Origin: Eledone cirrhosa
Lineage: Eukaryota
DNA: 64,000 nucleotides
NCBI GenBank assembly: GCA_964016885.1
Contig: OZ024741.1
Coordinates: 288,362,001 to 288,426,000, forward strand
Direction: 5' to 3'
Shown in pieces: positions 1,047-62,864 of this stretch. A model generated the notes under the pieces. It did no database searches, was not told the DNA's origin, and saw only the letters and a list, made by a program, of their open reading frames with translations. The translations under genes were made by a program, and so were the position numbers. Position 1 is the stretch's first letter; each line of letters starts with the position of its first letter.

Positions 1047-2158
1047 TAAAATAACAGAATGATTTCCAGCCCCGGAGTTTAAGAATGATGTAAATAAAAT
1101 TGAAAACGAAAATGACAGAGGTTATTAAAATAGTAAAAGTAAATAGTGAAGATTTAGGCTAGTACATACGTATGCCCCGACGGACATACACATACATACG
1201 CACACACATATACATACCCCCCCCCCCCGCACACACACATACAAACACACTGCACACCTGTATAGAGAAAACACGAATGAAAGGAGATACACATTATCAG
1301 AGACAAATAGAAATTTGAGGAACTCACAGATAAACTTCAATATACACAACTTGAGACACATACATACTGCTAAATGAACATAGTTAGACACATTATATAT
1401 ATCTAATATATATTTGTGAAATGGGTGGTGGTTGAAATTCAGATGTGCACGGTTAAATGGTAGTAGACGCGGTCGGACTGACATGAAAATTTACACACCT
1501 ATGTAAAAAGTGCCAAGGAAGCAAATAGACGAGGTTTCAAATCTCTAACTTGAAAAATGTGGTCCCTGGGGCCCCAAAGCTATCGCGTTCGGTGAGTTAT
1601 TTCCCCCTGTTCTAATACTTTTGTTTTATTTACAATTTCATACAAATTTTTAAATTCATCAACGTTCTTTCGCTGTTAACATACAAATAATTTGAAAAAT
1701 ATTATTGAAAGTTTATTATAAAGAAGCAGTTTCAGGAAAAAGTGTAAACTATCATACAAACCTTCATAATATGCATTTTTAAACTTGCATATCATCAACA
1801 TTGCTATTTCGCTGTTAATAAACTATCATCCTTCTACATTTAACGATCATACAGTACCGTTTTATGAAATCGATTCTGCAGTACGGTCACTGTTTTCCAT
1901 CAAAAGAAATAAAACCCTTAAATTGCGAAGAAGGGACGCGTGTTTTTATTTTAATTCTAATACATGTTAACCACCACTAACAATAAGTAGTATTTTTCAA
2001 ATTGCATATCATCGACATTGCTATTTCGCTGTTAATAAACAACGCTTTTCACGTCGCTCCACTTCTCATTGTACGCCATCCAGCCCGAAGTGCATATTTC
2101 TATTTTTTTATAATAAACTTTCAATAATATTTTTCAAATTATTAACTTAATAAAAAGT

Positions 2159-2188
2159 GGCCCCGGGTGCAACCGGGCTCAGCTGCTA

Positions 2189-2189
<1 letters not shown>
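2159..2189 (+). mobile_element. Helitron-type 3' terminus
   Basis: GC-rich hairpin CCCGG-GTGCAA-CCGGG followed 8 nt later by CTAG then T; left boundary of the element not determined. Confidence 0.65.
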
Positions 2190-2251
<62 letters not shown>

Positions 2252-2391
2252 TGGTTACACAACAGTTAGTTCACCATACCGAGGACAATTGTTTCACCTT
2301 AGCGGATCCTTAGTGTAACCACTTCTACCTAACTCGTCCCATGGACTGAGTGATCTACCACTACGGATATTATCTTCCAGTGTTCTACCAC

Positions 2392-2498
<107 letters not shown>

Positions 2499-2620
2499 CA
2501 CATGCACACCCATATATACGTAGATACATACACATACTCACATACGTCTATCTATCTATCTCTCTCTCTATATATATATATATGGATGCATGTGTGTGTA
2601 TATATGTATGTATATGTATG

Positions 2621-2682
<62 letters not shown>

Positions 2683-3046
2683 TGTATATGTGTATGTACA
2701 TATGCATTATGTATTATGTATACATGTAACTATGTATATATGTATGTATTATGTATGTATGTATGTATGTATGTATGTATGTATGTATGTATGTATGTAT
2801 GTATGTATGTATGTATGTGTGTATGTATGAATGTATATATGTATATATGTATTATGTATGTATATATGTATGAATGTATATATGTCTATATATATGTAAT
2901 TATGTATGTATGTAGATATACGCATTATCGGGTTTCCAAATAAACAAACGTATTTTGTATTTGTATTGTATTCATCTTTGTGTATGTATACATTTGAATG
3001 TATGTATGTGAGTGTGTATAGGTATATATGTATGTATATATGTATG

Positions 3047-3797
3047 TTATCTCTTTCTCTTAATTTCGAGTATATTTTTTTTACCGGCCACCTTCCTGGT
3101 GGCAAGGTTGTAAAAGAAAAGAAATTGTCATCCCTTGAATCGGAAGAATGTTTTGCAAATTTTGAAGGTACCAGCTATCGCAGCCATTTGTAGACTATGA
3201 ATTAGGGAGCTGCGCGCTTTGTCCGCAAATCCAAGTTCAGCTATACATTGGTCCAAGCGGGTTGGTATATAACCCGTAGCTCCAATAATGATGGGTATGA
3301 AGCTAAAGGCGTATCTTGGATACTGGATGTGTAAACTCCTCATCAATGGTCTGTAGATGTCCTCCTTCTCCTGTATTTTTCTGACAACGTTTACACAAGT
3401 GGGCAGCTGATCTCTACAACAGAACACGTTTTCAATGTGTGGTCCCAAACAACAATATCAGGCAGGTTGTGCTTTAATTTGGTGGCAGTTTTTATTTTCA
3501 GGTTCCACCAGTATTCCTTAGTGCCATCTGTCTCAATATATTCTTCCTCGTTTGTTGTTAATTTTGTTTTCCGAAGTGCGTTCCAGATGGTTCTAGCTAT
3601 CCCATCGTGTCTCATGGGGAGGTAGTAGCGAGATGACATTCTTTCGCAGTTGGCAACAATGTGGCTTACATCCTCGATCTTTGTTTTACATAGCCTACAT
3701 TTATCGTCAGCTGCTGGCCCTCCTCTTTTGTGCAGCAGATATTTGGTAGGGAGTTCTTGTTCCTGTATTGCATAGAGATATCCCTCAAGGTGTGATG
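3047..3797 (-). mobile_element. 5'-truncated R4/Dong-clade non-LTR retrotransposon (CCHC knuckle plus restriction-like endonuclease)
   Basis: ORFs 3391-3972 and 3128-3448 give AIQEQEL, CRLC...H....C, RHD, LPDIVVWD, EISCP, IIIGATG; frameshifted; flanked by (ACAT)n. Confidence 0.88.
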
Positions 3798-5460: not shown

Positions 5461-5611
5461 GGGAACATTGCGAATATGTTGACCGTTGTAGTGGTAGCAG
5501 TAGTTTCCCCTGTCTTTTCTCACTTTGTGCTTTCTACCACTGCTAGAGTGGTATATGCTCAACAGACTGGATAGTTTCATGTCACCACTACCCTGTACCC
5601 CCAACACTGCT

Positions 5612-6830
5612 CCTCTTATCATCAATATTGTGTTGATAACTGAGCCCCACTCTAGCTACAAGAACCAGGACACCCTCTTATCATCAATATTGTGTTGATA
5701 ACTTAGCCCCACTCTAGCTACAAGAACCAGGACATCCCCTTATCATCAATATTGTGTTGATAACTGAGCCCCATTCTAGCTACAAGAACCGGGACACCCT
5801 CTTATCATCAATATTGTGTTGATAACTGAGCCCCACTCTAGCCACAAAAACCAGGACATCCTCTTATCAACAATATTGTGTTGACAACTAATCCCCACTC
5901 TAGCCACAAAAACCAGGACATCCTCTTATCAACAATATTGTGTTGATAACTTAGCCCCACTCTAGCCACAAAAACCAGGACATCCTCTTATCAACAATAT
6001 TGTGTTGATAACTTAGCCCCACTCTAGCCACAAAAACCAGGACATCCTCTTATCAACAATATTGTGTTGATAACTTAGCCCCACTCTAGCCACAAAAACC
6101 AGGACATCCTCTTATCAACAATATTGTGTTGATAACTGATCCCCACTCTAGCCACAAGAACCAGGACACCCTCTTATCATCAATATTGTGTTGATAACTT
6201 AGCCCCACTCTAGCCACAAGAACCAGGACATCCTCTTATCAACAATATTGTGTTGATAACTTAGGCCCACTCTAGCTACAAGAACCAGGACATCCTCTTA
6301 TCAACAATATTGTGTTGATAACTGATCCCCACTCTAGCCACAAGAACCAGGACATCTCTTATCATCAATATTGTGTTGATAACTAATCCCCACTCTAGCT
6401 ACAAGAACCAGGACATCTCTTATCATCAATATTGTGTTGATAACTAATCCCCACTCTAGCCACAAAAACCAGGACATCCTCTTATCAACAATATTGTGTT
6501 GATAACTTAGCCCCACTCTAGCCACAAAAACCAGGACATCCTCTTATCAACAATATTGTGTTGATAACTAATCCCCACTCTAGCTACAAGAACCAGGACA
6601 TCCTCTTATCATCAATATTGTGTTGATAACTGAGCCCCACTCTAGCCACAAGAACCAGGACACCCTCTTATCATCAATATTGTGTTGATAACTGAGCCCC
6701 ACTCTAGCCACAAGAACCAGGACATCATTGTGTTGATAACTGGGCCCCAAACGAGATACTAGGCCCAGTACATCCTCTTATCAACAATGTTGTATTTATG
6801 ACTGATACCCACATGAGACACTAGGCCCAC
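5612..6830. repeat. 62-bp minisatellite, about 18 units plus a degenerate end
   Basis: Unit CCTCTTATCAACAATATTGTGTTGATAACTTAGCCCCACTCTAGCCACAAAAACCAGGACAT; internal inverted repeat TTATCAACA/TGTTGATAA. Confidence 0.95.
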
Positions 6831-7868: not shown

Positions 7869-8312
7869 ATACAAAGAAAATCTAGCAGTTTGAATATGGT
7901 AAATGGGAAGAAAAACTTTAATTAACCGATACTCGTAATTTGAAGACCTACGGTTATTGCGATATACAGTGGCAGACTGGCCACGTTGCCAGGTTGCCCA
8001 ATGGCAAGTGGGATCCAGGAGGTCCGCGCTTGCATTGCAGGGGCCCACAGTAGCATTGCAGGTCCCACTGTAGTATTTTAGGGGCCAATGGCTTTGGTTA
8101 AAAAAAATACCTGAAGTAAAAAAAAATAAAAAATAAAAAATAAAAGTAAAACATTTGGTCAACCAATTTCCCAGGGAATTAATAGAAACCAAAATATATG
8201 ATAGTGCAAATAGCTGGAATCAGTGGTTGTACATTCTACAAAATCTAAAGCCTAGAGTATTCATTCATGCAGGCAAACATATACATATAGACACACACAC
8301 ACACACACAAGA

Positions 8313-8340
<28 letters not shown>

Positions 8341-8343
<3 letters not shown>

Positions 8344-9640
8344 AATGAGATACCTGACAGAATAGAAAAAAGCTTCATCACCGAGGGATTAAAATTCATC
8401 TTACGGAACAACTTGTTTGATTTCGATGGCAATACTTACAAGCAAATATCGGGGACTGCGATGGGTACAAAAGCCGCTCCAACTTATGCCAACTTAGGCA
8501 TACTTAGAAGTCCAGATATATCAACAGTCCAAATCAAAATACGGATTGAACTTCCACAAATATTTATCAGAGAATTGGAAACGCTACTTGGATGATTGTC
8601 TCATTCTTTGGTCCCACACACTCGACCAACTGAAGGATTTCAAAAACTTAATAAACGGCATCAATAACCACATCCAATTCACAATGGAATACAGCCAAGA
8701 TCAACTCCCATTTCTGGACATATTAATCTTAAAAAAAGACACAAATATTGAAACTAACATACACTACAAACCAACAGATTCCAAACAATACCTGCTATTC
8801 ACCTCCAACCATCCAAAGCACACGAAGACGAACTTTCGTTTTAACCTAGCAAGAAGAATTTGCACAATTGTCTCCAATTATGAAACGCGAAATAAAAGAC
8901 TTCAAGAATTACATGAAATTCTATTCGAAAGAGAGTACCCTCTATTACTAATAAATAATGTAATAGAAAGGGCTAAAGCAATAGGCATTGATGAATTACG
9001 AAAACAGAAACAAATTCAAGGTACGTCCAATATTCTATCATATATCTCAACACACAACCCAAGAAATGCGGAAACTTACAACACTATTCACAAGAACATC
9101 CCACTACTAAAACAAAACCCAAGAATGAAAAAAAGCCCTTGAAACACACAAAATAATCAAAAGCAAAAGACAACCGAAATCACTGAAAACATTACTCACC
9201 AATGCCAAATTACCTACCACAAACCCACAACCAAGTATCAAAAAATGTGGTCGCTCTAATTGTGGAACCTGCACTCACCTCATTGAAGGCAACACGTATA
9301 CATTTAAATCAGGACAAAATTTTACTGTAAAAAATCACTTCACTTGCTCATCAAAAATCTAATTTATGCCATTAAATGTAAAGGATGCAATGAAGATTAT
9401 ATAGGACAAACTAAACTCACACTCAGAAACAGAATGACAGTTCATCGCCAACAATTACGAGATCCAACCACGAGACATATACCACTAAGCGCACATCTAG
9501 ACATATGCGCAAGTAATAAGACACCCAACTTCCAAGTCTTCCCATTTTACCTTTGCGCTAAAAATACAACAGAACAAATACGAATAAATAAGGAAAATAT
9601 GTTTATTCAAAAATATAGACCAGCATTAAATATGGTTTAA
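8341..9640 (+). pseudogene. PLE (Neptune-like) reverse transcriptase plus GIY-YIG endonuclease, 5'-truncated and frameshifted
   Basis: YKQISGTAMGTKAAPTYANL, WKRYLDD, HYKPTDS, SNHPKH, KCGRSNCGTC, NLIYAIKC..C...YIGQT, R...H, E..FI....P.LN; non-coding tail to about 10840. Confidence 0.92.
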
Positions 9641-11983: not shown

Positions 11984-12039
11984 ACTGCTATATATATTTC
12001 GATAATAGCCATTGAATGGCTATGACCTCATCAGGCAGT
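11984..12039 (-). ncRNA. Type I hammerhead ribozyme
   Basis: ACTGC CTGATGA ggtc ATAGCCAT tca ATGGCTAT tatc GAAA TATATA TA GCAGT. Confidence 0.88.
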
Positions 12040-13504: not shown

Positions 13505-13644
13505 CACACATACATACATACCCCCCCCCCCGCCACACACACACTCTCTTTGTCTGATTTACTCGTTTTATTTACAATCCTTTAAAATTTATAATGGTAT
13601 TAGAATGAAATAGTATGGTAGAATATTAAATGTTAAGTGTTAAT

Positions 13645-13683
13645 TGAACAAGTACTTTCATGCTTTCGCAATCTTCAGGTTCA
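13645..13683 (-). ncRNA. Minimal hammerhead ribozyme (left arm)
   Basis: Reverse complement of 13757-13795. Confidence 0.85.
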
Positions 13684-13756
13684 TATTGTGTGGTGACAGT
13701 CAAGTTTGCAATTTTCAATAGTTGAAAATTGCAAACTTGACTGTCACCACAGAATA

Positions 13757-13795
13757 TGAACCTGAAGATTGCGAAAGCATGAAAGTACTTGTTCA
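13757..13795 (+). ncRNA. Minimal hammerhead ribozyme (right arm)
   Basis: TGAAC CTGAAGA t TGC gaaa GCA t GAAA GTAC TT GTTCA. Confidence 0.85.
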
Positions 13796-14033
13796 ATTAA
13801 CACTTAACATTTAATATTCTACCATACTATTTCATTCTAATACCATTAAAAAATGTTAAAGGATTGTAAATAAAACGAGTAAATCAGACAAAGTTGGAAT
13901 TCCTTTTATTAATATAATCTTCTATACATAATCATACACAGCCGTGTATATTTATCTCTATATATATATAAATCTATATATACACATGTACATGTACACA
14001 TATACACGTACATGCACACATATACACACACTC

Positions 14034-19759: not shown

Positions 19760-20628
19760 AAGTTGTGCATGGGTACCTGGGACGTAAAACATAGAGGGGA
19801 TAAAACATTAAAAAAGCTTGGCATGGAGTTCCGACAAGTTTATGACATCCCACCTTGAAGGATACATACATACATACATACATTACACCTTGAGGGATAT
19901 CTCTATGCAATACAGGAGCAAGAAATCCCTACCAAATATCTGCTACACAAAAGAGGAGGGCCATCAGTCGACAATAAATGTAGGCTTTGTAAAACAAAGA
20001 TGTTAGCCACATTGTTGCCAACTGCGAAATAATGTCGTCTCGTTACTACCTCCCTATGAGACACGACGTGATAGCTAGAACCATCTGGAACGCACTTAGA
20101 AAAATAAAATTAAAAACAAATGAGGAGGAATTTGTTGAGATAGATGGCACTAAAGAATGGTGGTGGAATCTGAAAATAAAAACTGCCATCAAATTAAAGC
20201 ACAAACGGCCTGATATTGTTGTTTGGGACCATTCATTGAAAACGTGCTCTGTTGTAGAGACAACTGTCCACTTGATGACAACGTTGTAAGAAAAAACAAG
20301 AGAAAGAGGACATCTAACATCTATGGATCATTAATGAGGAGTTTGCAGATCCAGTATCCAAGATACACCTTCAGCTTCATAGCCATCATTATTGGAGCTA
20401 CAGGTTGTATACCAACCCGCTTAGACCAAAGTATAACTGAACTTGGATTTGTGGACAAAGAGCGCAGCTCCTTACCTCATAGACTACAAATGGCTGCGAT
20501 AGCTGGCACCTTCAAAATTTGCAAAACATTCTTGCGATTCAAGGGATGACAATTTCTTTTCTTTTACAACCTTGCCACCAGGAAAGTTGCAGGTCAGGAA
20601 TGTACTCGAAATTAAGAGAAAGAGAAAA
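19760..20628 (+). mobile_element. R4/Dong-clade LINE 3' fragment
   Basis: SHLEGY, CRLC, RHDVIAR, RPDIVVWD, IIIGATG; same family as 3047-3797. Confidence 0.88.
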
Positions 20629-20809
20629 GAAACACACACACACACGCACCCCCCCCCCCACATCATTATATATACCATTGAGAGATAATGTAGTGAAACT
20701 GGTAGAATCCAGTTGTAAAAATGTTAAACTTATTAATAGTGTTAGCAGACGTTGTGGTGTAGGTGTTGGCGGTGTTGTGGCTGAGGGTGTTGTTGGTGTT
20801 TATAGTGTT

Positions 20810-21520
20810 GTTGTTGTTGGTGGTGCTGGCGATGAGATTGGTGTTATTAGTGGTATTGTTGGTGCTGGCGATGAGATTGGTGTTGTTAGTGGTATTGTAG
20901 TTGGTGGTGCTGCTGGCGATGAGATTGGTGTTATTAGTGGTATTGTTGGTGCTGGCGATGAGATTGGTGTTGTTAGTGGTATTGTTGTTGGTGGTGGTGC
21001 TGGCGATGAGATTGGTGTTGGTGCTGGCGATGAGATTGGTGTTATTAGTGGTATTGTTGTTGGTGGTGCTGGCGATGGGATTAGTGTTGTTAGTGGTATT
21101 GTTGGTGGTGGTGGCGATGAGATTGGTATTGTTAGTGGTATTGTTGTTGTTGTTGGTGCTGGCGATGAGATTGGTATTGTTAGTGGTATTGTTGTTGTTG
21201 TTGGTGCTGGCGATGAGATTGGTATTGTTAGTGGTATTGTTATTGTTGGTGGTGCTGACGATGAGATTGGTATTGTTAGTGGTATTGTTGTTGTTGTTGG
21301 TGGTGGTAGCGATGATATTGGTATTGTTAGTAGTATTGTTGTTGTTGTTAGGGGTGTTGGCGATGAGATTGGTGTTGTTAGTGGTATTGCTGTTGTTGTT
21401 GTTGGTGCTAGCGATGAGATTGGTGATGTTAGTGGTGCTGGCGATGAGATCGGTGTTGTTAGTGATATTGTTGTTGTTGGCGGTGCTGGCGATGAGATTG
21501 GTGTTGTTAGTGGTGTTGGT
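20810..21520. repeat. Variable-length minisatellite (GGTGCTGGCGATGAGATTGGTGTTGTTAGTGGTATTGTT)
   Basis: Direct inspection. Confidence 0.9.
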
Positions 21521-21527
21521 GGTGACG

Positions 21528-21588
<61 letters not shown>

Positions 21589-21730
21589 CGGTGTTATTGT
21601 TGTTGTTGTTTCTAGTGGTGGTGATGGTGGTGTTATTGGTGTTGTTGTTGGTAGTATTGGTGGTGTTGGTGTTGTTATTGGTGGTGACGTCGTCGTCGTC
21701 GTCATCGTCATCGTCGTCGTCGTCGTCGTC

Positions 21731-21773
<43 letters not shown>

Positions 21774-21914
21774 TAGTAGTAGTTGTTGTTGTTGTTAGTG
21801 GTGGTGGTGGTGGTGAGTGGTGGTGGTGGTGGTGGTGGGAGTACTGTTGCTGATGGTGGTCACGGTGCTGCTCTCATTTGTTACATTTGCTAGAATGGAT
21901 TATGATGGCTGATT

Positions 21915-22970
21915 GGGGTGGTGGTGGTGGTGGTGGTGGTTATGGTGGTGGTGGTAGCTGCTGGTGTTGGTGGTGGTGGTGGTAGCTGCTGGTGTTGGTG
22001 GTTGTGATGGTGGTGGTGGTTATGGTGGTGGTGGTAGCTGCTGGTGTTGGTGGCGCTGGTGGTGGTGGTTATGGTGGTGGTGGTAGCTGCTGGTGTTGGT
22101 GGTGGTTATGGTGGTGGTTATGGTGGTGGTGGTATCTGCTGGTGTTGGTGGTGGTGGTGGAAGTTGCTGGTGTTGGTGGTGATGGTGGTGGTGGTTATGT
22201 GGTGGTGGTAACTGCTGGTGTTGGTGGTGGTTATGGTGATGGTGGTAGCTGATGGTGTTGGTGGTGTTGGTGGTGGTGGTGGTGGTTATGGTGGTGGTGG
22301 TAGCTGCTGGTGTTGGTGGTGGGGATGGTGGTGGTGGTGGTGGTTATGGTGGTGGTGGTAGCTGCTGGTGTTGGTGGTGGTGGTGGTGGTGGTTATGGTG
22401 GTGGTGGTGGTGGTGGTTATGGTGGTGGTGGTGGTGGTGGTTATGGTGGTGGTGGTAGCTGCTGGTGTTGGTGGTGGTTATGGTGGTGGTGGTAGCTGCT
22501 GGTGTTGGTGGTGGTGGTGGTGGTGGTTATGGTGGTGGTGGTGGTGGTGGTTATGGTGGTGGTGGTAGCTGCTGGTGTTGGTGGTGGTTATGGTGGTGGT
22601 GGTAGCTGCTGGTGTTGGTGGTGGTGGTGGTGGTGGTTATGGTGGTGGTGGTGGTGGTGGTTATGGTGGTGGTGGTTACTGCTGGTGTTGGTGGTGGTGG
22701 TGGTGGTGGTTATGGTGGTGGTGGTGGTGGTGGTTATGGTGGTGGTGGTGGTGGTTATGGTGGTGGTGGTAGCTGCTGGTGTTGGTGGTGGTTATGGTGG
22801 TGGTGGTAGCTGCTGGTGTTGGTGGTGGTGGTGGTGGTGGTTATGGTGGTGGTGGTAGCTGCTGGTATTAGTGGTGGTGGTTATGGTGGTGGTGGTAGCT
22901 GCTGGTGTTGGTGGTGGTGGTTATGGTGGTGGTGGTAGCTGCTGGTGTTGGTGTTGGTGGTGGTGGTGGT
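21915..22970. repeat. (GGT)n-based minisatellite (GGTTATGGTGGTGGTGGTAGCTGCTGGTGTTGGT)
   Basis: Direct inspection; the reading frame shifts between units. Confidence 0.9.
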
Positions 22971-23670
22971 CGTGGCGTTGAGATTTTCATACAAACTGAA
23001 CATCGTTCTTTACTTAAATTAACCATTTTAGATTTGACAACTTCCGATGTACAGAAGCAGCAGCAGCAGCAGCAGCAACAACAACAACAACAGTAACAAC
23101 TTCCGATGTACAGAAGCAACAACAACGACGACGACGACGACAACAACAAAAACAACAACAACAAAATAAAATAAAAGTAATAAAGATATAAAAAGATGAA
23201 ATAAAGAGTCTTTAATCTAATTGTGGTGATAAAATATACTGCTGGGCACTATAATCATGTAATCTCTCTCTCTCTCTTACTCCCTCTTGCCCCTTTCTCT
23301 CTCCCCCTCTCTCCCTTTCTCTTCCTCTCTCTCTCTAACTCTCTCTCCCTCTTTCTCTGACTCTCTCTCTATCTAACTCTCCCGCTCTCTCTCTCTCTAT
23401 TACGCACTCTCACTCTCTCGCTCAACACCGACACACACACACATACATACATACATACATACATACACACACACATGCATACATACATACATACGTACAT
23501 GAATACATACATACATACGTACATGCATGCATACATACATACATACATACATACATACATGCATACATACTTGCATACATACACATACATACATACACTC
23601 ATGCACAAACACACACATACACAAACACATACACACACATATATATATGTACACACACATATTTATTATA

Positions 23671-25059: not shown

Positions 25060-25794
25060 TAGACGTCATTTCTATATTAAATATATATATATATATACAT
25101 GTGTGTGTGTGGGTGTGTGTGTTGTAAAGACTAGCTTCATAGCATTAATAATATAAGCATCTATAGAAGAAATGGTACAATGTGACAGGAGTTTCGACTG
25201 TAAAGAGTATAAGAAAGATGAAAGAATTAAAAAAGTCAACAACAGTTTAACGTAGATGAAGAATCTTCTGCTCTTTACGAAAGGTCAATTCCAATATTTA
25301 GTCTTAGTTTACTATTTAGAGATTCTACTTACATTGATAACCACAACAAAATTATTTGAATGTCTGGACATACACATATTCATGATATAGAATCTACAAT
25401 TATGAACACATGCCACAGCTCAGTCATAGCTGTGACAACAAAACAAAATAAAGAAGTTATAGAACATACACCGACAAATACACTCGTATATGTATAAACA
25501 CACACACAGATACACACACGCGCGCACACACACAGACACTCACCCACACACGTTCGCATACACACGCACTCACACACCTATACACACTCGCACACAAATA
25601 GACACATTTGCATACACACTCTTCTCACACGTATGTGTCAGAAGTAAACATCACATACATACATATATATATATAAGCAGAAGGGATATTCAATTTGTTG
25701 GTAATTCAACAAATATAAATTGACTATCCAAGGAAAACTTGAACCGTTAAGGTATATTCTCCTTGCTTATGTCAAAATTTATAAAACACACTCG

Positions 25795-25855
25795 TATTTT
25801 ATCTGATGATAGCGTACCAACATTTTGGTACCCTTGAAATATATATAATAGAATA
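25795..25855 (+). ncRNA. Type I hammerhead ribozyme
   Basis: TATTTTAT CTGATGA t ag c GTACCA acattt TGGTAC c ct t GAAA TATATA TA ATAGAATA. Confidence 0.85.
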
Positions 25856-26035
25856 AATATGGTTTTATAAATATAGTTTCCATTTATTTAATATCATTGT
25901 ATATATATATATATATATCAAGATAAGCAGAACAAGTAAAATTCAACCAATTTTTCAAAATAAATCAAAATTAATATACAATTAAAATTAATCAAAATTA
26001 AAAAATATAATATAAATATTTACCTATTCAAATGG

Positions 26036-26113
26036 CCCTAACTGTACAGTTTCACGGTGCAAAACATTAAATATCACCAGGATATTAATGGAAAAGCAAC
26101 GATCATCAGAGAA
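26036..26113 (-). ncRNA. Hammerhead ribozyme (repeat 1)
   Basis: CTCT CTGATGA tcgttgc...gcaccgt GAAA CTGTACAG TT AGGG. Confidence 0.8.
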
Positions 26114-26561
26114 GCATTTTCCTGTCCTAGGGTTAAAAACCCCAGGAACGACAAAATATATGACCTCACTCCAACTAATACAGGTCTAAAAGGTCGTGAA
26201 AGTGACCCGTAAATACATTGGTGTATAGTGAAGGCGGGAAATCGTAGACTCGCCGTCTATAGCTCGCCACTAAAAAAAGATTTTTAGTAACTAAATATAA
26301 CGACAAATTTGTATCTCTACATATGGAGATTATTGAAAAAGGTTAATATATATCTGAGGGTACAATGTACCCCCGGAAATATATAGTGTGTCTATGATTT
26401 AAGGTGGTTCTATGGTAATAATTTGATATACCAGAACATAATATCAAGATAAGCAGAACAAGTAAAATTCAACCAATTTTTCAAAATAAATCAAAATTAA
26501 TATACAATTAAAATTAATCAAAATTAAAAAATATAATATAAATATTTACCTATTCAAATGG

Positions 26562-26639
26562 CCCTAACTGTACAGTTTCACGGTGCAAAACATTAAATAT
26601 CACCAGGATATTAATGGAAAAGCAACGATCATCAGAGAA
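26562..26639 (-). ncRNA. Hammerhead ribozyme (repeat 2)
   Basis: Identical to 26036-26113. Confidence 0.8.
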
Positions 26640-26658
26640 GCATTTTCCTGTCCTAGGG

Positions 26659-26713
<55 letters not shown>

Positions 26714-26718
<5 letters not shown>

Positions 26719-27459
26719 GTTGAAAAGGTAACACACCAGAGAGAGATATACAGTGCACTATCAATAAAACAGGGAAAAAACCCACCAGTGTATGGAATCT
26801 ATAATCTATGAAAGGCAGACTATAGACACGATAATTAAAAATATAAATTAAAGCGTAAATAAATACCTCTATAACCATATAACACACGTACAAATCCAAA
26901 GAGATCTGTTTCGCCAGTAATTTGTTGACAGAAATGGAATAACCTCGGTTCCTCAGCGTGTGTAAGGCCATACATTTCAGACAACACTAAGAGAATTTTA
27001 AAAGTGACTGTCCAGCTACACCTGGGAGAGAGAAGTCACAGCGTGTTTAAGAGCAGTGAACCAGTGGCCTCTGAGGGACGAGCTGCTAGAAAGGGCAGCC
27101 CAAAACCACTCAGAGAAGTATGCTCAACCAAACAGAGAGATAGGAAAGACTGTTATAAGGAGCGAAATATCACGATAAAATAACGGAGCCATAGGCCCTC
27201 GCCATTCCCTGTAAATAATGTGCTCAAAGGAGAAGAAATCCTGAGCTCTTTAAAATACAATATTTTGAAAAGGTAACACACATACAGTGCGCTATCAATA
27301 AAACAGGTTTTTCCCCCTGTTTTATTGATAGCGCACTGTATATCTCTCTCTGGTGTGTTACCTTTTCAACATATTGTATTTTAAAGAGCTCAGGATTTCC
27401 TCTCCTTTGAGCACATTATTTACAGGGAATGGCGAGGGCCTATGGCTCCGTTAATTTAT

Positions 27460-27467
<8 letters not shown>
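26714..27467 (-). mobile_element. Retrozyme-like element: about 545-bp unit with terminal redundancy and an inverted arm
   Basis: 26714-26772 recurs at 27259-27307; 27167-27307 is inverted at 27316-27467. Confidence 0.75.
26883..26962 (-). ncRNA. Type I hammerhead ribozyme with a full stem III
   Basis: CACACG CTGAGGA acc...ggc GAAA CAGATC tctttg GATTTG TA CGTGTG. Confidence 0.8.
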
Positions 27468-27543
<76 letters not shown>

Positions 27544-27576
27544 TCTTCTTGCATGTGTCAGAAGTAAACATCACAT

Positions 27577-27625
<49 letters not shown>

Positions 27626-27899
27626 TTTCAACAACGTCATTATTCCGTGTCATAATTCTCGATTATCATTGGTTCATAGGTTTCAAACGACTCCGCCCAC
27701 CTCAATGACGCAAAACATAAATTAATATGCATAATACCAATGAGGGAGTGAGAGGGGAGAGTAAGAAACAGAGAGGCAAAGTGAACGCTGTAACTATTAC
27801 CATGTGTGCGTGTGTATGTACGTGCTCGTATGTTTATGTGTGTGTGCGTGTAGCGTTCCACAGAAAGTAAAAGCAATTCCATTTTATCAAGCAGTGAAC

Positions 27900-28088
27900 T
27901 ACAGCAGCGACGGCGTGCAGCCAGGAATGAAGAAAAACGGGCCGAACAGCGCCATCGGAACGCCGAATTTCAGAGGCGAAGACGTGCCGTCATGAATGAA
28001 GAGGAGCTGGGTGAACAACGTCAACGAAACACTGGAGCCAAGCAGCGACGGCGTGCTGCGATGGTTGAAGACGAACTGGCTGAGCATC
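27900..28088 (+). pseudogene. STPR-like 23-aa repeat fragment, probably from a Helitron RepHel N-terminus
   Basis: QRRRAARNEEKRAEQRHRNAEFQ / RRRRAVMNEEELGEQRQRNTGAK / QRRRAAMVEDELAEH. Confidence 0.55.
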
Positions 28089-28105
28089 ATCTTTTATATT
28101 AATTA

Positions 28106-28464
28106 TCTATATCTATATCTACATATAATATAAAAGATTGGAACTTCCATCATTCTTTTGAGAAACGTGGAACAACCACGTCTATGCAATGATACACGTT
28201 TTACAGTCAGGCAGAAGATGAACCATCTCCTAGAGGTCACTATTCTAGTTGGGAGTACCTAGAATTGTTCATATACTATGCACAAACGGTACAACGAAGA
28301 ATCTGGTATATCTGGAAGATTTTTTTTACTGTCTTTTGTATCACACAGACACCACGGACTCGCCTCATACTGTAACCAGACAAACATCCAATACAGTCAT
28401 TTTCTCTTTTACCTGTCTTCTCTTATCATCTGTTTACCCGGGCGAAGCTGGGTACGTCAGCTAG
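28106..28464 (+). mobile_element. Internally deleted Helitron with PIF1-helicase C-terminal remnants
   Basis: 5' TCTAT...; KIGTSIILLRNVEQPRLCNDTRF...HLLEVTILVG; GTTKNLVYLE; 3' hairpin TACCCGG...CTGGGTA then CTAG|T. Confidence 0.85.
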
Positions 28465-28620
28465 TATATATATATATATACACTCTTCTTACATGTGTCA
28501 GAAGTAAACGTCACATACAGACACACAGGCAAAGACAATTTCTACACGTCACTGTAGTTTACTTCAATTTAGTTAACAAGTTTAGCAAGATAAGGAAGAT
28601 TAACTGCTTGTATGTGTGAG

Positions 28621-28665
<45 letters not shown>

Positions 28666-28831
28666 AATTTATATCTAGTAACATATATATACATACAAAT
28701 GCATATTGATGCTAGCAAATATATAGGTTTTGTGTTAATAACATTGTGGTTCAGTGCATGGGGTTGCAGAACAATAATATAAGAGACGTAAGATAAGAAC
28801 ATTATAAAATTAACTTACTTACTAAAATATC

Positions 28832-28913
28832 ACTTCCAACTAATTAGTTTCTGGAATGGAGTAGATACACCTTCCGAGGAAGGTGTGGAGAAACATCCCG
28901 TCATCAGGAAAGT
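28832..28913 (-). ncRNA. Hammerhead ribozyme
   Basis: Reverse-complement counterpart of 29608-29689. Confidence 0.85.
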
Positions 28914-29607
28914 CTATTCTCATATATGTTTCCAGGCAAAGCGAGGACTCTGGAAGCTTATTAAAAATAAATCAGTGAATAGGAAATAGCAAAGCGTGGA
29001 CTTACTTCCTAGCCATTGAGAAAATCGCTGCCTCTGTGTCTGTGGCAAATTCAAAAAGAATCGAACACGTGACATCGAGGTCAATCGGTGGAAAGTGGGT
29101 TGTTAATAAGACAGCGGCCAGCCTACTACCGTAGCAGCAGTCATGGCCAGTATTGCTCGACAAATATCTTGGAGATAATTATAAAGAATTTATATCTAGT
29201 AACATATATATACATACAAATGCATATCGATGCTAGCAAATATATAGGTTTTGTCTTAATAACAGTGTGGTTCAATGCATGGGGCTGCAGAACAATAATA
29301 TAAGAGACGTAAGATAAGAAAATTATAAAATTAACTTACTAATTATCTCCAAAATATTTGTCGAGCAATACTGGCCATGACTGCTGCTACGGTAGTAGGC
29401 TGGCCGCTGTCTTATTAACAACCCACTTTCCACCGATTGACCTCGATGTCACGTGTTCGATTCTTTTTGAATTTGCCACAGACACAGAGGCAGCGATTTT
29501 CTCAATGGCTAGGAAGTAAGTCCACGCTTTGCTATTTCCTATTCACTGATTTATTTTTAATAAGCTTCCAGAGTCCTCGCTTTGCCTGGAAACTTATATG
29601 AGAATAG

Positions 29608-29689
29608 ACTTTCCTGATGACGGGATGTTTCTCCACACCTTCTTTGGAAGGTGTATCTACTCCATTCCAGAAACTAATTAGTTGGAAGT
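29608..29689 (+). ncRNA. Hammerhead ribozyme
   Basis: ACTTTC CTGATGA c GGGATG...ACACCTTC tttg GAAGGTGT...CATTCC a GAAA CTAATTAG TT GGAAGT. Confidence 0.85.
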
Positions 29690-29737
29690 GATATTTTAGT
29701 AAGTAAGTTAATTTTATAATTTTCTTATCTTACGTCT

Positions 29738-29807
<70 letters not shown>

Positions 29808-36113: not shown

Positions 36114-36114
<1 letters not shown>

Positions 36115-36156
36115 CGCTGTACTAGTTTCAAGCTTGTTAGCTATCGTCAGCAACGT
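36114..36156 (-). ncRNA. Minimal hammerhead ribozyme
   Basis: ACGTTG CTGACGA t AGCT aaca AGCT t GAAA CTAG TA CAGCGT. Confidence 0.88.
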
Positions 36157-37057: not shown

Positions 37058-37408
37058 TATGCTCGAAGCTAAATCCTAATTCTATTCTATTATAAGTGAG
37101 TCAACTTATACAGCTTCATATGCAAATGAGATTAATCACCTCATTTACACTGACGAGAAAACTATATATTCTCGCCTGTTTGCAAGAGTGGGAGGGATCG
37201 TCCTGACGACAACCAGTTCAGTTCGAAATACGCATCGACGATTGTCCCCGTTGCTTCTGTTGGACACCGTCAGCTGGCGATAGCCGCTGGTGTTTTTGCA
37301 TAGCTACGGCTTTCTAAATGTTTATTTATAAACATACCGTATTTCTTTAGAATGCGAAATTCCAATACATATCTGTATACAGCTATGATCGAAGCTGAAT
37401 CCTAATTC

Positions 37409-37414
<6 letters not shown>
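37058..37414 (+). mobile_element. Retrozyme-like 326-bp unit with 31-bp terminal redundancy
   Basis: TATGCTCGAAGCTAAATCCTAATTCTATTCT at 37058 recurs at 37384. Confidence 0.65.
37197..37242 (+). ncRNA. Hammerhead ribozyme
   Basis: ATCGTC CTGACGA c AAC cagttca GTT c GAAA TACGCA TC GACGAT. Confidence 0.8.
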
Positions 37415-49240: not shown

Positions 49241-49246
<6 letters not shown>

Positions 49247-49915
49247 GGAATAGAATGAAACGAAATTTCATTTCTCACTCTTACTACGGCATTTACTTTA
49301 ATGTAAGTATGTATGTATACGTAGATACATATATGTATACAGACGTACAGTAGTATGTATATAAATACATACATGCACATATATATATGCACGTATGGGT
49401 TTACCGAACATTTATTATAATGCTCGGTTTGTTTGTAAACAAACAAACAGTCCGAATTACGCCGTACAGTGTTTAGGCATCCACGTCATCTTTTTGTTCA
49501 ACACTGACACAGGAACGATGTACTAGTTTCAAGCTTATTAGCTATCGTCAGCATCGTATACCTTCCTGCCAGATGGTTAAACGTCTGAAAGTATATACTT
49601 TTCTTATGCATATTAATAGCTGAGCAGCCTAATTTGCATATCGAGTGAGTTCAGTCGGCCGGGCGCACCGAAAACGATAAATGGAATAGAATGTTTCAGT
49701 GTTGAACAAAAAGGTGACGTGGTTGCCTAAACACTGTACGGTGTAATTCGGGCTGTTTGTTTGTTTACAAACAAACAAACCGAGCATTTTAATAAATGTT
49801 CGGTAAACCGATACGTGCATATATATATGTGTGCATGTATGAGTATATATATATATACATACTACTGTACGTCTGTATACATATATGTATGTACGTGTAC
49901 ATACATACATACTTA
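49241..49915. mobile_element. Retrozyme-like element: 436-bp unit plus about 210-bp inverted arm
   Basis: ATAAATGGAATAGAATG at 49241 and 49677; 49303-49507 is inverted at 49696-49913. Confidence 0.75.
49515..49557 (-). ncRNA. Minimal hammerhead ribozyme
   Basis: ACGATG CTGACGA t AGCT aata AGCT t GAAA CTAG TA CATCGT. Confidence 0.88.
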
Positions 49916-62797: not shown

Positions 62798-62864
62798 TTT
62801 TATTATGCGCATTTCAAAAACAAATATCATCATGCAATAATATTTGTGTTTTCATCAGATAAAA
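62798..62864 (-). ncRNA. Type I hammerhead ribozyme
   Basis: TTTTAT CTGATGA aaac ACAAATATTAT tgcatg ATGATATTTGT tttt GAAA TGCGCA TA ATAAAA. Confidence 0.85.

Follow-up and report, generated by a model that had tools for sequence, protein, structure and literature searches.

A Penelope-like element (PLE) protein cleaves and extends both target strands, with reverse transcription starting at two internal sites. Unprocessed RNA is its main substrate, and RNA cleavage is dispensable in vitro (Frangieh 2024, PMC11167929). Mobilization of retrozymes by PLEs has been proposed by Cervera and de la Pena 2020 (PMC7229834) and by Li et al. 2026 (10.64898/2026.07.22.740005). For the movement of animal retrozymes, the case still rests on co-occurrence and sequence similarity. 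A circular template for PLEs was reportedly put forward in 2014.

Five ORF-less repeat families

We analyzed a 64,000-nt stretch of an animal genome (the window), in which the 25676–29744 region contains four insertions in (TA)n. Self-BLAST and copy mapping gave repeat units of 526 (F1, at 25915), 545 (F2, at 26714), 521 (F3, at 28661), 436 (F4, at 49243) and 326 bp (F5, at 37059), bearing out the unit sizes (526, ∼545, 521, 436 and 326 bp) and the terminal redundancy of an earlier, sequence-only reading. The redundancy measures 222 bp in F1 and 161 bp in F3. The insertions (F0–F3) and the window copies of F4 and F5 are as follows.

25676..25720, minus: short inverted arm of F0, whose outer end is the distal start site in the 3' end of a Hydra-type PLE
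25719..25905, plus: F0 sense part, a 5'-truncated Hydra-type PLE 3' end; stops at the proximal start site before (TA)n
25795..25855, plus: type I hammerhead motif of F0 with a palindromic stem III; core 25803, cleavage predicted after 25847
25915..26662, minus: F1 element, 1.42 units of the 526-bp ORF-less repeat; 3' end 25915, no inverted arm
26034..26116, minus: 3' copy of the F1 hammerhead motif; core 26109, cleavage predicted after 26040
26560..26642, minus: 5' copy of the F1 hammerhead motif; core 26635, cleavage predicted after 26566
26710..27307, minus: F2 sense arm, 1.1 units of the 545-bp repeat; 3' end at the proximal site
26882..26963, minus: hammerhead motif of F2; core 26956, cleavage predicted after 26889
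27306..27467, plus: inverted arm of F2 with the distal site at its outer end; 9-nt junction offset, among the few hairpin-like cases
28659..29340, minus: F3 sense arm, 1.31 units of the 521-bp repeat, with the 161-bp redundancy; 3' end at the distal site
28832..28914, minus: hammerhead motif of F3; core 28907, cleavage predicted after 28838
29328..29744, plus: 417-bp inverted arm of F3 with the proximal site at its outer end; 13-nt junction overlap
37058..37414, plus: F5 element, 1.1 units of 326 bp; degenerate short hammerhead at 37203, no arm
49243..49915, minus: F4 element, 436-bp unit; core 49551, inverted arm ∼49692–49915

F1–F3 are multi-copy, short head-to-tail repeats without coding capacity (GC 32–40%, below 50%), each with a minus-strand type I hammerhead motif. 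Since minus is the ribozyme strand, the inverted copy sits 5' in the element. The redundancy of the F1 copy is 100% identical, and its two same-strand hammerheads bracket one full unit. The longest stop-free frames of F1–F3 span 60–102 aa, and the RT plus GIY-YIG ORF of an autonomous PLE is absent from F1–F5. As first read, the units show no obvious similarity to one another: no blastn match among F1–F5 reached E<=0.01. It was also right that three elements end in an inverted copy, these being the window copies of F2, F3 and F4; those of F1 and F5 have none.

Copies are spread across many contigs and end in TA runs rather than poly(A). Most are 1–1.5 units long, with some tandem arrays of 3 to ∼5 units, among the copies studied, which are the top BLAST matches and favor long and young ones. 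Candidate counts from the genome search (1,472–3,437) and contig depths do not equal copy numbers. By their sequence features, F1–F3 are non-LTR retrozymes, that is, ORF-less repeat families with predicted hammerheads. Their motifs are type I and their units lie head-to-tail, unlike LTR retrozymes, which have type III hammerheads in LTRs together with a primer-binding site, a polypurine tract and a 4-bp duplication. In the literature searched, we found neither the F1–F3 families nor a PLE end signature in ORF-less repeats; some of the families may already be catalogued, for example in Repbase or Dfam.

Comparison with retrozymes and PLEs

Like animal non-LTR retrozymes (PMC7229834; 10.64898/2026.07.22.740005), these families have ORF-less, low-GC units with a single type I hammerhead motif in each, occur in tandem, are predicted to yield highly folded RNA and coexist with PLEs. 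They differ in that most copies are dispersed inserts of 1.1–1.5 units that show an inverted arm on the 5' side and use two mapped start sites, and in that F1–F3 have stems II of 37–50 nt and no Rfam match. F1–F3 units exceed the 170–400 nt of PMC7229834 but lie within the 51–972 bp of the preprint (10.64898/2026.07.22.740005). Homology to PLE ends is seen in 24 of 57 Xenopus retrozyme families versus none of F1–F3, for the two PLE ends tested.

With Neptune- and Hydra-clade PLEs (Craig et al. 2021, PMC8557442; PMC11167929), F1–F5 share the partial tandem, the inverted 5'-truncated copy, the tail at one end, (TA)n targets and two internal RT starts downstream of the hammerhead. Unlike these PLEs, they encode nothing, and their tails are longer (61–120 nt, at one element end only, versus a published 30–40 bp). 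The anole PLE starts at non-homologous sites (PMC11167929), whereas six start sites here end in 3–5 nt matching the TA target; at the F1 distal site a single nt matches. Non-autonomous Chlamys PLEs, MRC1 for one (PMC8557442), resemble F1–F5 in their pseudo-LTRs and multicopy head-to-tail inserts. However, their 3' ends resemble those of autonomous partners, a likeness that F1–F5 do not have to the two tested PLEs, and the clade has no canonical hammerheads, whereas F1–F5 carry hammerhead motifs.

Hammerhead motifs

The region contains four distinct type I motifs within 4 kb (cores 25803+, 26109–/26635–, 26956– and 28907–/29614+, the last lying in the F3 inverted arm), matching the four families first noted here. 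The strict scan gave nine matches in the window versus none in each of 10 shuffles; the motifs of F2 and F5 escaped it and were identified by eye, and the window's F5 copy is degenerate. Rfam scans gave no hammerhead match (in one listing, none among 150 of 211 rows), and a large hammerhead repertoire goes unseen by Rfam here. The F2 motif has a 7-bp stem I, a long stem III and an A-C mismatch at the base of stem II. Indeed, the stem II base is mismatched in these hammerheads. In diverged F3 relatives, stem II carries changes on both sides. Units fold better than shuffles (z of –5.4, –4.3 and –3.2). Scoring deletions only, we found none at the predicted cut (F1, 0/480; F3, 0/855; F4, 0/332). 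Two same-strand hammerheads occur at 16/28 F1, 13/44 F3 and 3/29 F2 loci, and in the window only in the F1 copy; at such loci the predicted ribozymes could free a monomer. Two plus-strand strings resemble hammerheads, one in F1 (26354) and one in F2 (27070), but both were rejected for want of a core base, and an ambisense reading was dropped.

Copy ends and inverted arms

Within each family, 3' ends fall at two fixed internal sites (40/44 copies for F3, 27/28 for F1, 26/29 for F2, 20/24 for F4 and 22/25 for F5), the sites having been chosen from the same copies as were counted, except for the F1 distal site. The two start sites lie 60–280 nt downstream of the predicted cut, and only 5' ends vary. 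The scattered permutation of copy ends, for which mapping had been suggested as a check, is therefore not what the copies show. Inverted arms, which lie head-to-head with the sense arm, are present in 27/44 copies of F3, 20/29 of F2, 12/24 of F4, 6/25 of F5 and, in two sets of F1, 2/28 and 9/20. The outer end of the arm also lies on a fixed start site (F3, 24/27; F2, 16/20; F4, 11/12).

The two ends of an armed copy seldom use the same site. Among 59 two-armed copies of F2–F4, 45 have different sites, two have the same site and 12 have one end off-site; use of different sites (45/47) departs from an expectation of 0.5 (p=1.6e-11). For F1, a second site was forecast near unit position 90–100 and then found at ∼102, and all nine two-armed copies have different sites, with distal ends binned widely (86–130). 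In F5, five of six arms end at unit positions 311–321, and sense ends lie near 30. Two autonomous PLE families of this genome behave alike: different sites were used in 9/9 two-armed copies of the Neptune type, among 20 loci, and in 25/25 Hydra-type copies with both ends at sites, among 46 loci. F1–F5 thus show the partial tandem, the inverted 5'-truncated copy and the two-site tail of PLE-type insertion. Their shared architecture is the published PLE insertion pattern. A pile-up of F3 5' ends just after the predicted cut (12/44 within 25 nt) was set aside because it overlaps TA-like homology and query bias; it is absent from F2, F4 and F5. Target duplications are unreadable inside (TA)n.

Autonomous PLEs of the same genome

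Judged from its sequence, F0 comes from an autonomous Hydra-type PLE, of which it is the 3' end, and is not a unit-plus-redundancy element. The unit-plus-redundancy architecture stands for F1–F5 but not for the motif at 25803, which comes from a PLE end of less than one unit. At 13 of 15 loci with a PLE endonuclease-type frame, the F0 hammerhead lies 0.9–1.4 kb downstream on the same strand. Extension of copies into RT-coding sequence, named beforehand as evidence against the sequence-only reading, was found for this hammerhead. The Hydra-type RT plus endonuclease frames contain DKT, CxCX5C, CxxC and CxH motifs, read against PMC8557442, and the target is (TA)n. RT similarity was found at E=1e-6, and atlas neighbors bear RVT_1 or GIY-YIG; Pfam gave no match to these frames, and Pfam and NCBIfam together nothing useful. 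The window also holds part of a young PLE.

8137..9142, plus: young Neptune-type PLE fragment, RT part

Neptune-type copies with 775-aa open frames elsewhere in the genome are candidate helpers. Apart from one 32-nt match (E=0.006), F1–F5 have no sequence in common with the two tested PLE ends, so the helper is only a candidate.

Circular or linear template

Non-majority bases are shared within elements above expectation (F3 tandem, 54 versus 8.4; F3 arm, 77 versus 12.9; F1, 50 versus 14.7), although long arrays inflate these pairwise counts. When just the last two units are compared, private shared variants occur in 12/38 F1, 8/37 F3, 1/18 F2 and 2/18 F4 elements. In the older F2 and F4, discordance within elements is no lower than between them (189 versus 173; 183 versus 151). 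No variants specific to the 5' or 3' unit were seen (75/77, 28/30). Copying of more than one unit from a single-unit template fits these data.

One sequencing run (X4) is RNA-derived, as seen from a spliced GT-AG joint (depth 3072) in a ribosomal protein gene. Its assembled contigs match all four families, although assembled contigs cannot show circles. A 554-nt F1 contig is neutral on circles. It is listed over ∼385 nt only, and its joint, which goes back 525, reflects the redundancy of the window copy itself.

Discussion

F1–F3 are TA-microsatellite inserts with a PLE-like end pattern, and hence were likely copied by a Penelope enzyme. We put at about 80% the probability that a PLE RT/GIY-YIG protein copied them in trans, probably from a ribozyme-made circle. 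Several other origins were weighed. The sequence-only reading had RT starting anywhere on a circle, crossing the junction and folding back on its own cDNA to make the arm. Arm and sense arm do have variants in common, and in the window's F2 copy the arm junction is no more than 9 nt from a mirror point, but hairpin-like junctions number 6/67, against 5.7 expected by chance. With 3' ends fixed and outer arm ends on start sites, fold-back is very improbable. What survives of that reading is the retrozyme assignment itself, with its ORF-less hammerhead families and single-unit template. Marginally less remote is that F1–F3, like F0, are the ends that 5' truncation left of autonomous PLEs, in their case PLEs outside the sample. 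Their hammerheads are of PLE type, with palindromic stem III and long stem II (PMC4209133). Yet units close head-to-tail on themselves, up to ∼5 times, their frames are short, and only 3/171 elements have a same-strand PLE coding match within 1.3 kb upstream, with no shared distance. Descent of F1–F3 from a PLE end long ago is nonetheless likely. Satellite-type amplification by unequal crossover, or mobilization by a LINE, is the least credible origin: a few long tandem arrays and LINE-like fragments in the window would suit it, but not dispersed copies of mostly 1–1.5 units, TA-run ends or arms obeying the two-site rule.

A weightier rival is a PLE template without any circle: an uncleaved, linear transcript reading through a tandem source locus, its hammerheads weak or inactive. 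Insertion is normal with ribozyme mutants, and RNA-seq reads ending at the cut site were absent (Frangieh 2024, PMC11167929); eight of nine tested dimers stayed uncleaved (Li 2026, 10.64898/2026.07.22.740005). Arrays of 3 to ∼5 units could be sources, and the mismatched stem II base fits poor ribozymes. Linear copying, however, can only shorten copies, and it accounts poorly for private variants in both tandem copies of F1 and F3 and for the lack of a recurrent 5'-versus-3' unit difference marking a linear master. Young homogeneous arrays or gene conversion could still yield shared-variant patterns. On balance we regard a linear template as unlikely, and we lean toward the predicted circular one.

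For copying by a PLE in trans, the steps would be as follows. The PLE protein would nick both target strands, and reverse transcription would start at two fixed positions within the repeat RNA, probably with one cDNA primed per target strand. One arm may pass its own start, giving 1.1–1.5 units and up to ∼5. Short-homology repair would then join the two cDNAs to each other, or one of them to the far flank. The next monomer would come from copies carrying a same-strand hammerhead pair, the window's F1 copy being one. The fullest version is tentative, and we rate it slightly below even: a PLE dimer would take a ∼525-nt ribozyme-made circle in trans and prime both nicked TA strands on that one circle at the two sites, one strand rolling past its start to leave the tandem hammerhead pair and the other making the inverted arm.

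The architecture is known PLE behavior. Here, a PLE-specific end signature is counted copy by copy in ORF-less hammerhead repeats, beside young long-frame PLEs in the same genome. With enzyme, RNA, start sites and target to hand, these families would allow trans-mobilization and the circular template to be tested in vitro. If true, the full model would provide genomic evidence for rolling-circle reverse transcription, and would explain retrozyme spread and the tandem/inverted structure of PLEs in one step, for many unrelated RNA families in one genome.

Hammerhead repeats of the window

Self-BLAST of the window (G000:C2:288362001-288426000 of a 3.0-Gb animal genome, with abundant TA microsatellites) confirmed the unit lengths and redundancies that a sequence-only reading had given, and by blastn the units of families F1-F5 are unrelated, as that reading had held.

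Hammerhead-motif repeats of the window (F1-F5, repeat families; unit lengths from self-BLAST; strand, where given, is that of the motif)
25803: F0, hammerhead motif
25915, minus strand: F1, unit 526 bp
26714, minus strand: F2, unit 545 bp
28661, minus strand: F3, unit 521 bp
37059: F5, unit 326 bp
49243, minus strand: F4, unit 436 bp

Because the motif strand is minus in F1-F4, their inverted arms lie at the 5' side. A strict scan gave 9 type I motifs in the window versus 0 in 10 shuffles, and 254 matches in 30 groups versus 0 in one shuffle across 1.13 Mb of fetched loci, which had been chosen for containing repeats of this kind. The F2 and F5 motifs, outside this strict scan, were read by eye, and an Rfam scan returned no hammerhead among the matches listed. 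Both stem II helices were kept through two-sided changes in diverged F3 relatives (three sequences, by eye). Units of F1, F2 and F3 folded better than shuffles, and the longest stop-free frame in F1-F5 was at most 102 aa.

The first stem II pair is a mismatch in F0-F4. Many of the 30 groups (from fetched loci L001-L294) come from families never used as a query, and type I motifs of other families lie in the window at 11989-12034, 13548-13893 (a palindromic two-armed copy), 36114-36150 and 62804-62858. Other repeats include a minisatellite (5611-6812; 62 bp, 18 copies), a long low-complexity array in which both strands have open frames (20483-22975) and a SINE that we take to be cephalopod-like. 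Between F2 and F3, a multi-copy repeat (27647-28464) gave no hammerhead in the motif scan; it terminates in a GC-rich hairpin and CTAG followed by (TA)n, presumably resembling a Helitron 3' end.

Copy ends

Copy sets comprised the best-scoring loci per family, minus entries that duplicated a locus or segment already included (28 of 30 loci kept for F1, 29 of 30 for F2, 44 of 60 for F3, 24 of 25 for F4 and 25 of 25 for F5). The 3' ends fell at one or two family sites in 27/28, 26/29, 40/44, 20/24 and 22/25 copies, respectively, and a TA run followed in 28, 27, 40, 18 and 15; 5' ends were variable. As a control for permutation bias, an F3 query spanning the unit junction was used, and it returned the same two 3' sites. 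Copy-end mapping therefore gives fixed 3' starts, not the scattered permutation that the sequence-only reading had named as support for circular templates. A same-strand hammerhead pair was present in 16/28 F1 and 13/44 F3 copies.

Candidate source loci are the tandem arrays, 3 to >5 units long, at L272/L283 (G000:C3:352.31 Mb), L057, L280, L089 and L119. Beside the TA tracts holding the insertions, a 50-60-nt motif is found three times (25612, 27536 and 28476).

Two sites, two arms

Outer ends of the inverted arms coincide with sense 3'-end sites. Among 59 two-armed copies of F2-F4, the two arms used different sites in 45 and the same site in 2, with one end unplaced in 12. The first F1 set showed one site only; a second, predicted beforehand near position 90-100, was found at ~102, and different sites were seen in 9/9 two-armed copies among 20 new F1 loci (30, minus 9 repeats and 1 cut locus; distal bin 86-130). 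The arms did not arise by the proposed fold-back, with 6 of 67 arm junctions at most 20 nt from the mirror point versus 5.7 expected. By rough BLAST ends, these junctions had overlaps of at least 2 nt in 38 cases, 0-1 nt in 14 and inserted bases in 15.

Every start site is preceded by a pyrimidine-rich stretch, and a 10-nt word is common to the F1 unit end (25915-25935) and the F0 distal site (25673-25690). Word and context together may offer a weak lead to the helper serving F1.

Autonomous PLEs of the same genome

Starting from a fragment of a Penelope-like element (PLE) at 8137-9142, we reached a young family that has 775-aa frames, in which GIY-YIG scored over the Pfam cut-off and RVT_1 slightly under. 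Of its 20 copies (L141-L160), 18 have the Neptune-type cysteine linker and 19 a minimal hammerhead variant with U3-A8 as a core pair. Two 3' sites, separated by 65 nt, mark this family, with TA after 19/20 ends and upstream partial tandems in 7 copies; the arms used different sites in 9/9 two-armed copies.

A second PLE has F0 as its 3' end. Extension into RT-coding sequence, which the sequence-only reading had counted against its proposal, is absent for F1-F5 (same-strand coding match at ≤1.3 kb in 3/171) and present for F0, found 0.9-1.4 kb downstream of a PLE endonuclease-type frame at 13/15 loci (one being the seed locus and one an 84% partial match only). A 637-aa frame of this PLE carries YRDD, DKT, CxCX5C and CxxC, gave no Pfam match, and has the hammerhead downstream of it and an inverted copy on the upstream side. 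These features fit the Hydra clade as set out by Craig 2021 (PMC8557442). The two sites, 96 nt apart, differed in 25/25 two-armed copies with both ends placed (46 loci).

Template

Repeats inside one element have non-majority bases in common ~2-6 times above the between-element expectation, and derived bases are spread evenly over 5' and 3' units; these patterns favour re-reading of one unit and an origin of both arms from a single source. Pair counts of common bases are inflated by long arrays, and a similar signal could arise from gene conversion or from arrays that are homogeneous. Within-element discordance did not drop in F2 and F4, which counts against re-reading. Deletions at the predicted cut site were absent from F1, F3 and F4 and present in F2 (2/400) and F5 (6/290). 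Circular templates have been proposed for more-than-unit copying (Cervera 2014), and we consider one somewhat probable here.

Proposed mobilisation by PLEs

The PLE protein of Frangieh 2024 (PMC11167929), predicted to be dimeric, cuts both strands and extends each of them, and its two internal starts define the tail. Partial tandems, inverted arms, one-sided tails and TA targeting are already in print for PLEs, as is the hypothesis that retrozymes are non-autonomous PLEs. The main text of an octopus repeat annotation (PMC13282606) mentions neither ribozymes nor retrozymes. In literature outside most subscription journals and Repbase, we found no published account of F1-F5, nor one of ORF-less hammerhead repeats that bear the two-site signature.

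We suggest that F1-F5 RNAs are copied in trans by a PLE enzyme: each target strand would prime at one of two sites, short-homology repair would join the cDNAs, and read-past would restore two hammerheads. Structure, targets, fixed sites and the two-site rule were observed directly, as was the counterpart of this rule in autonomous PLEs of the same genome. Genomic support for PLE-driven mobilisation of F1-F5 is unusually direct.
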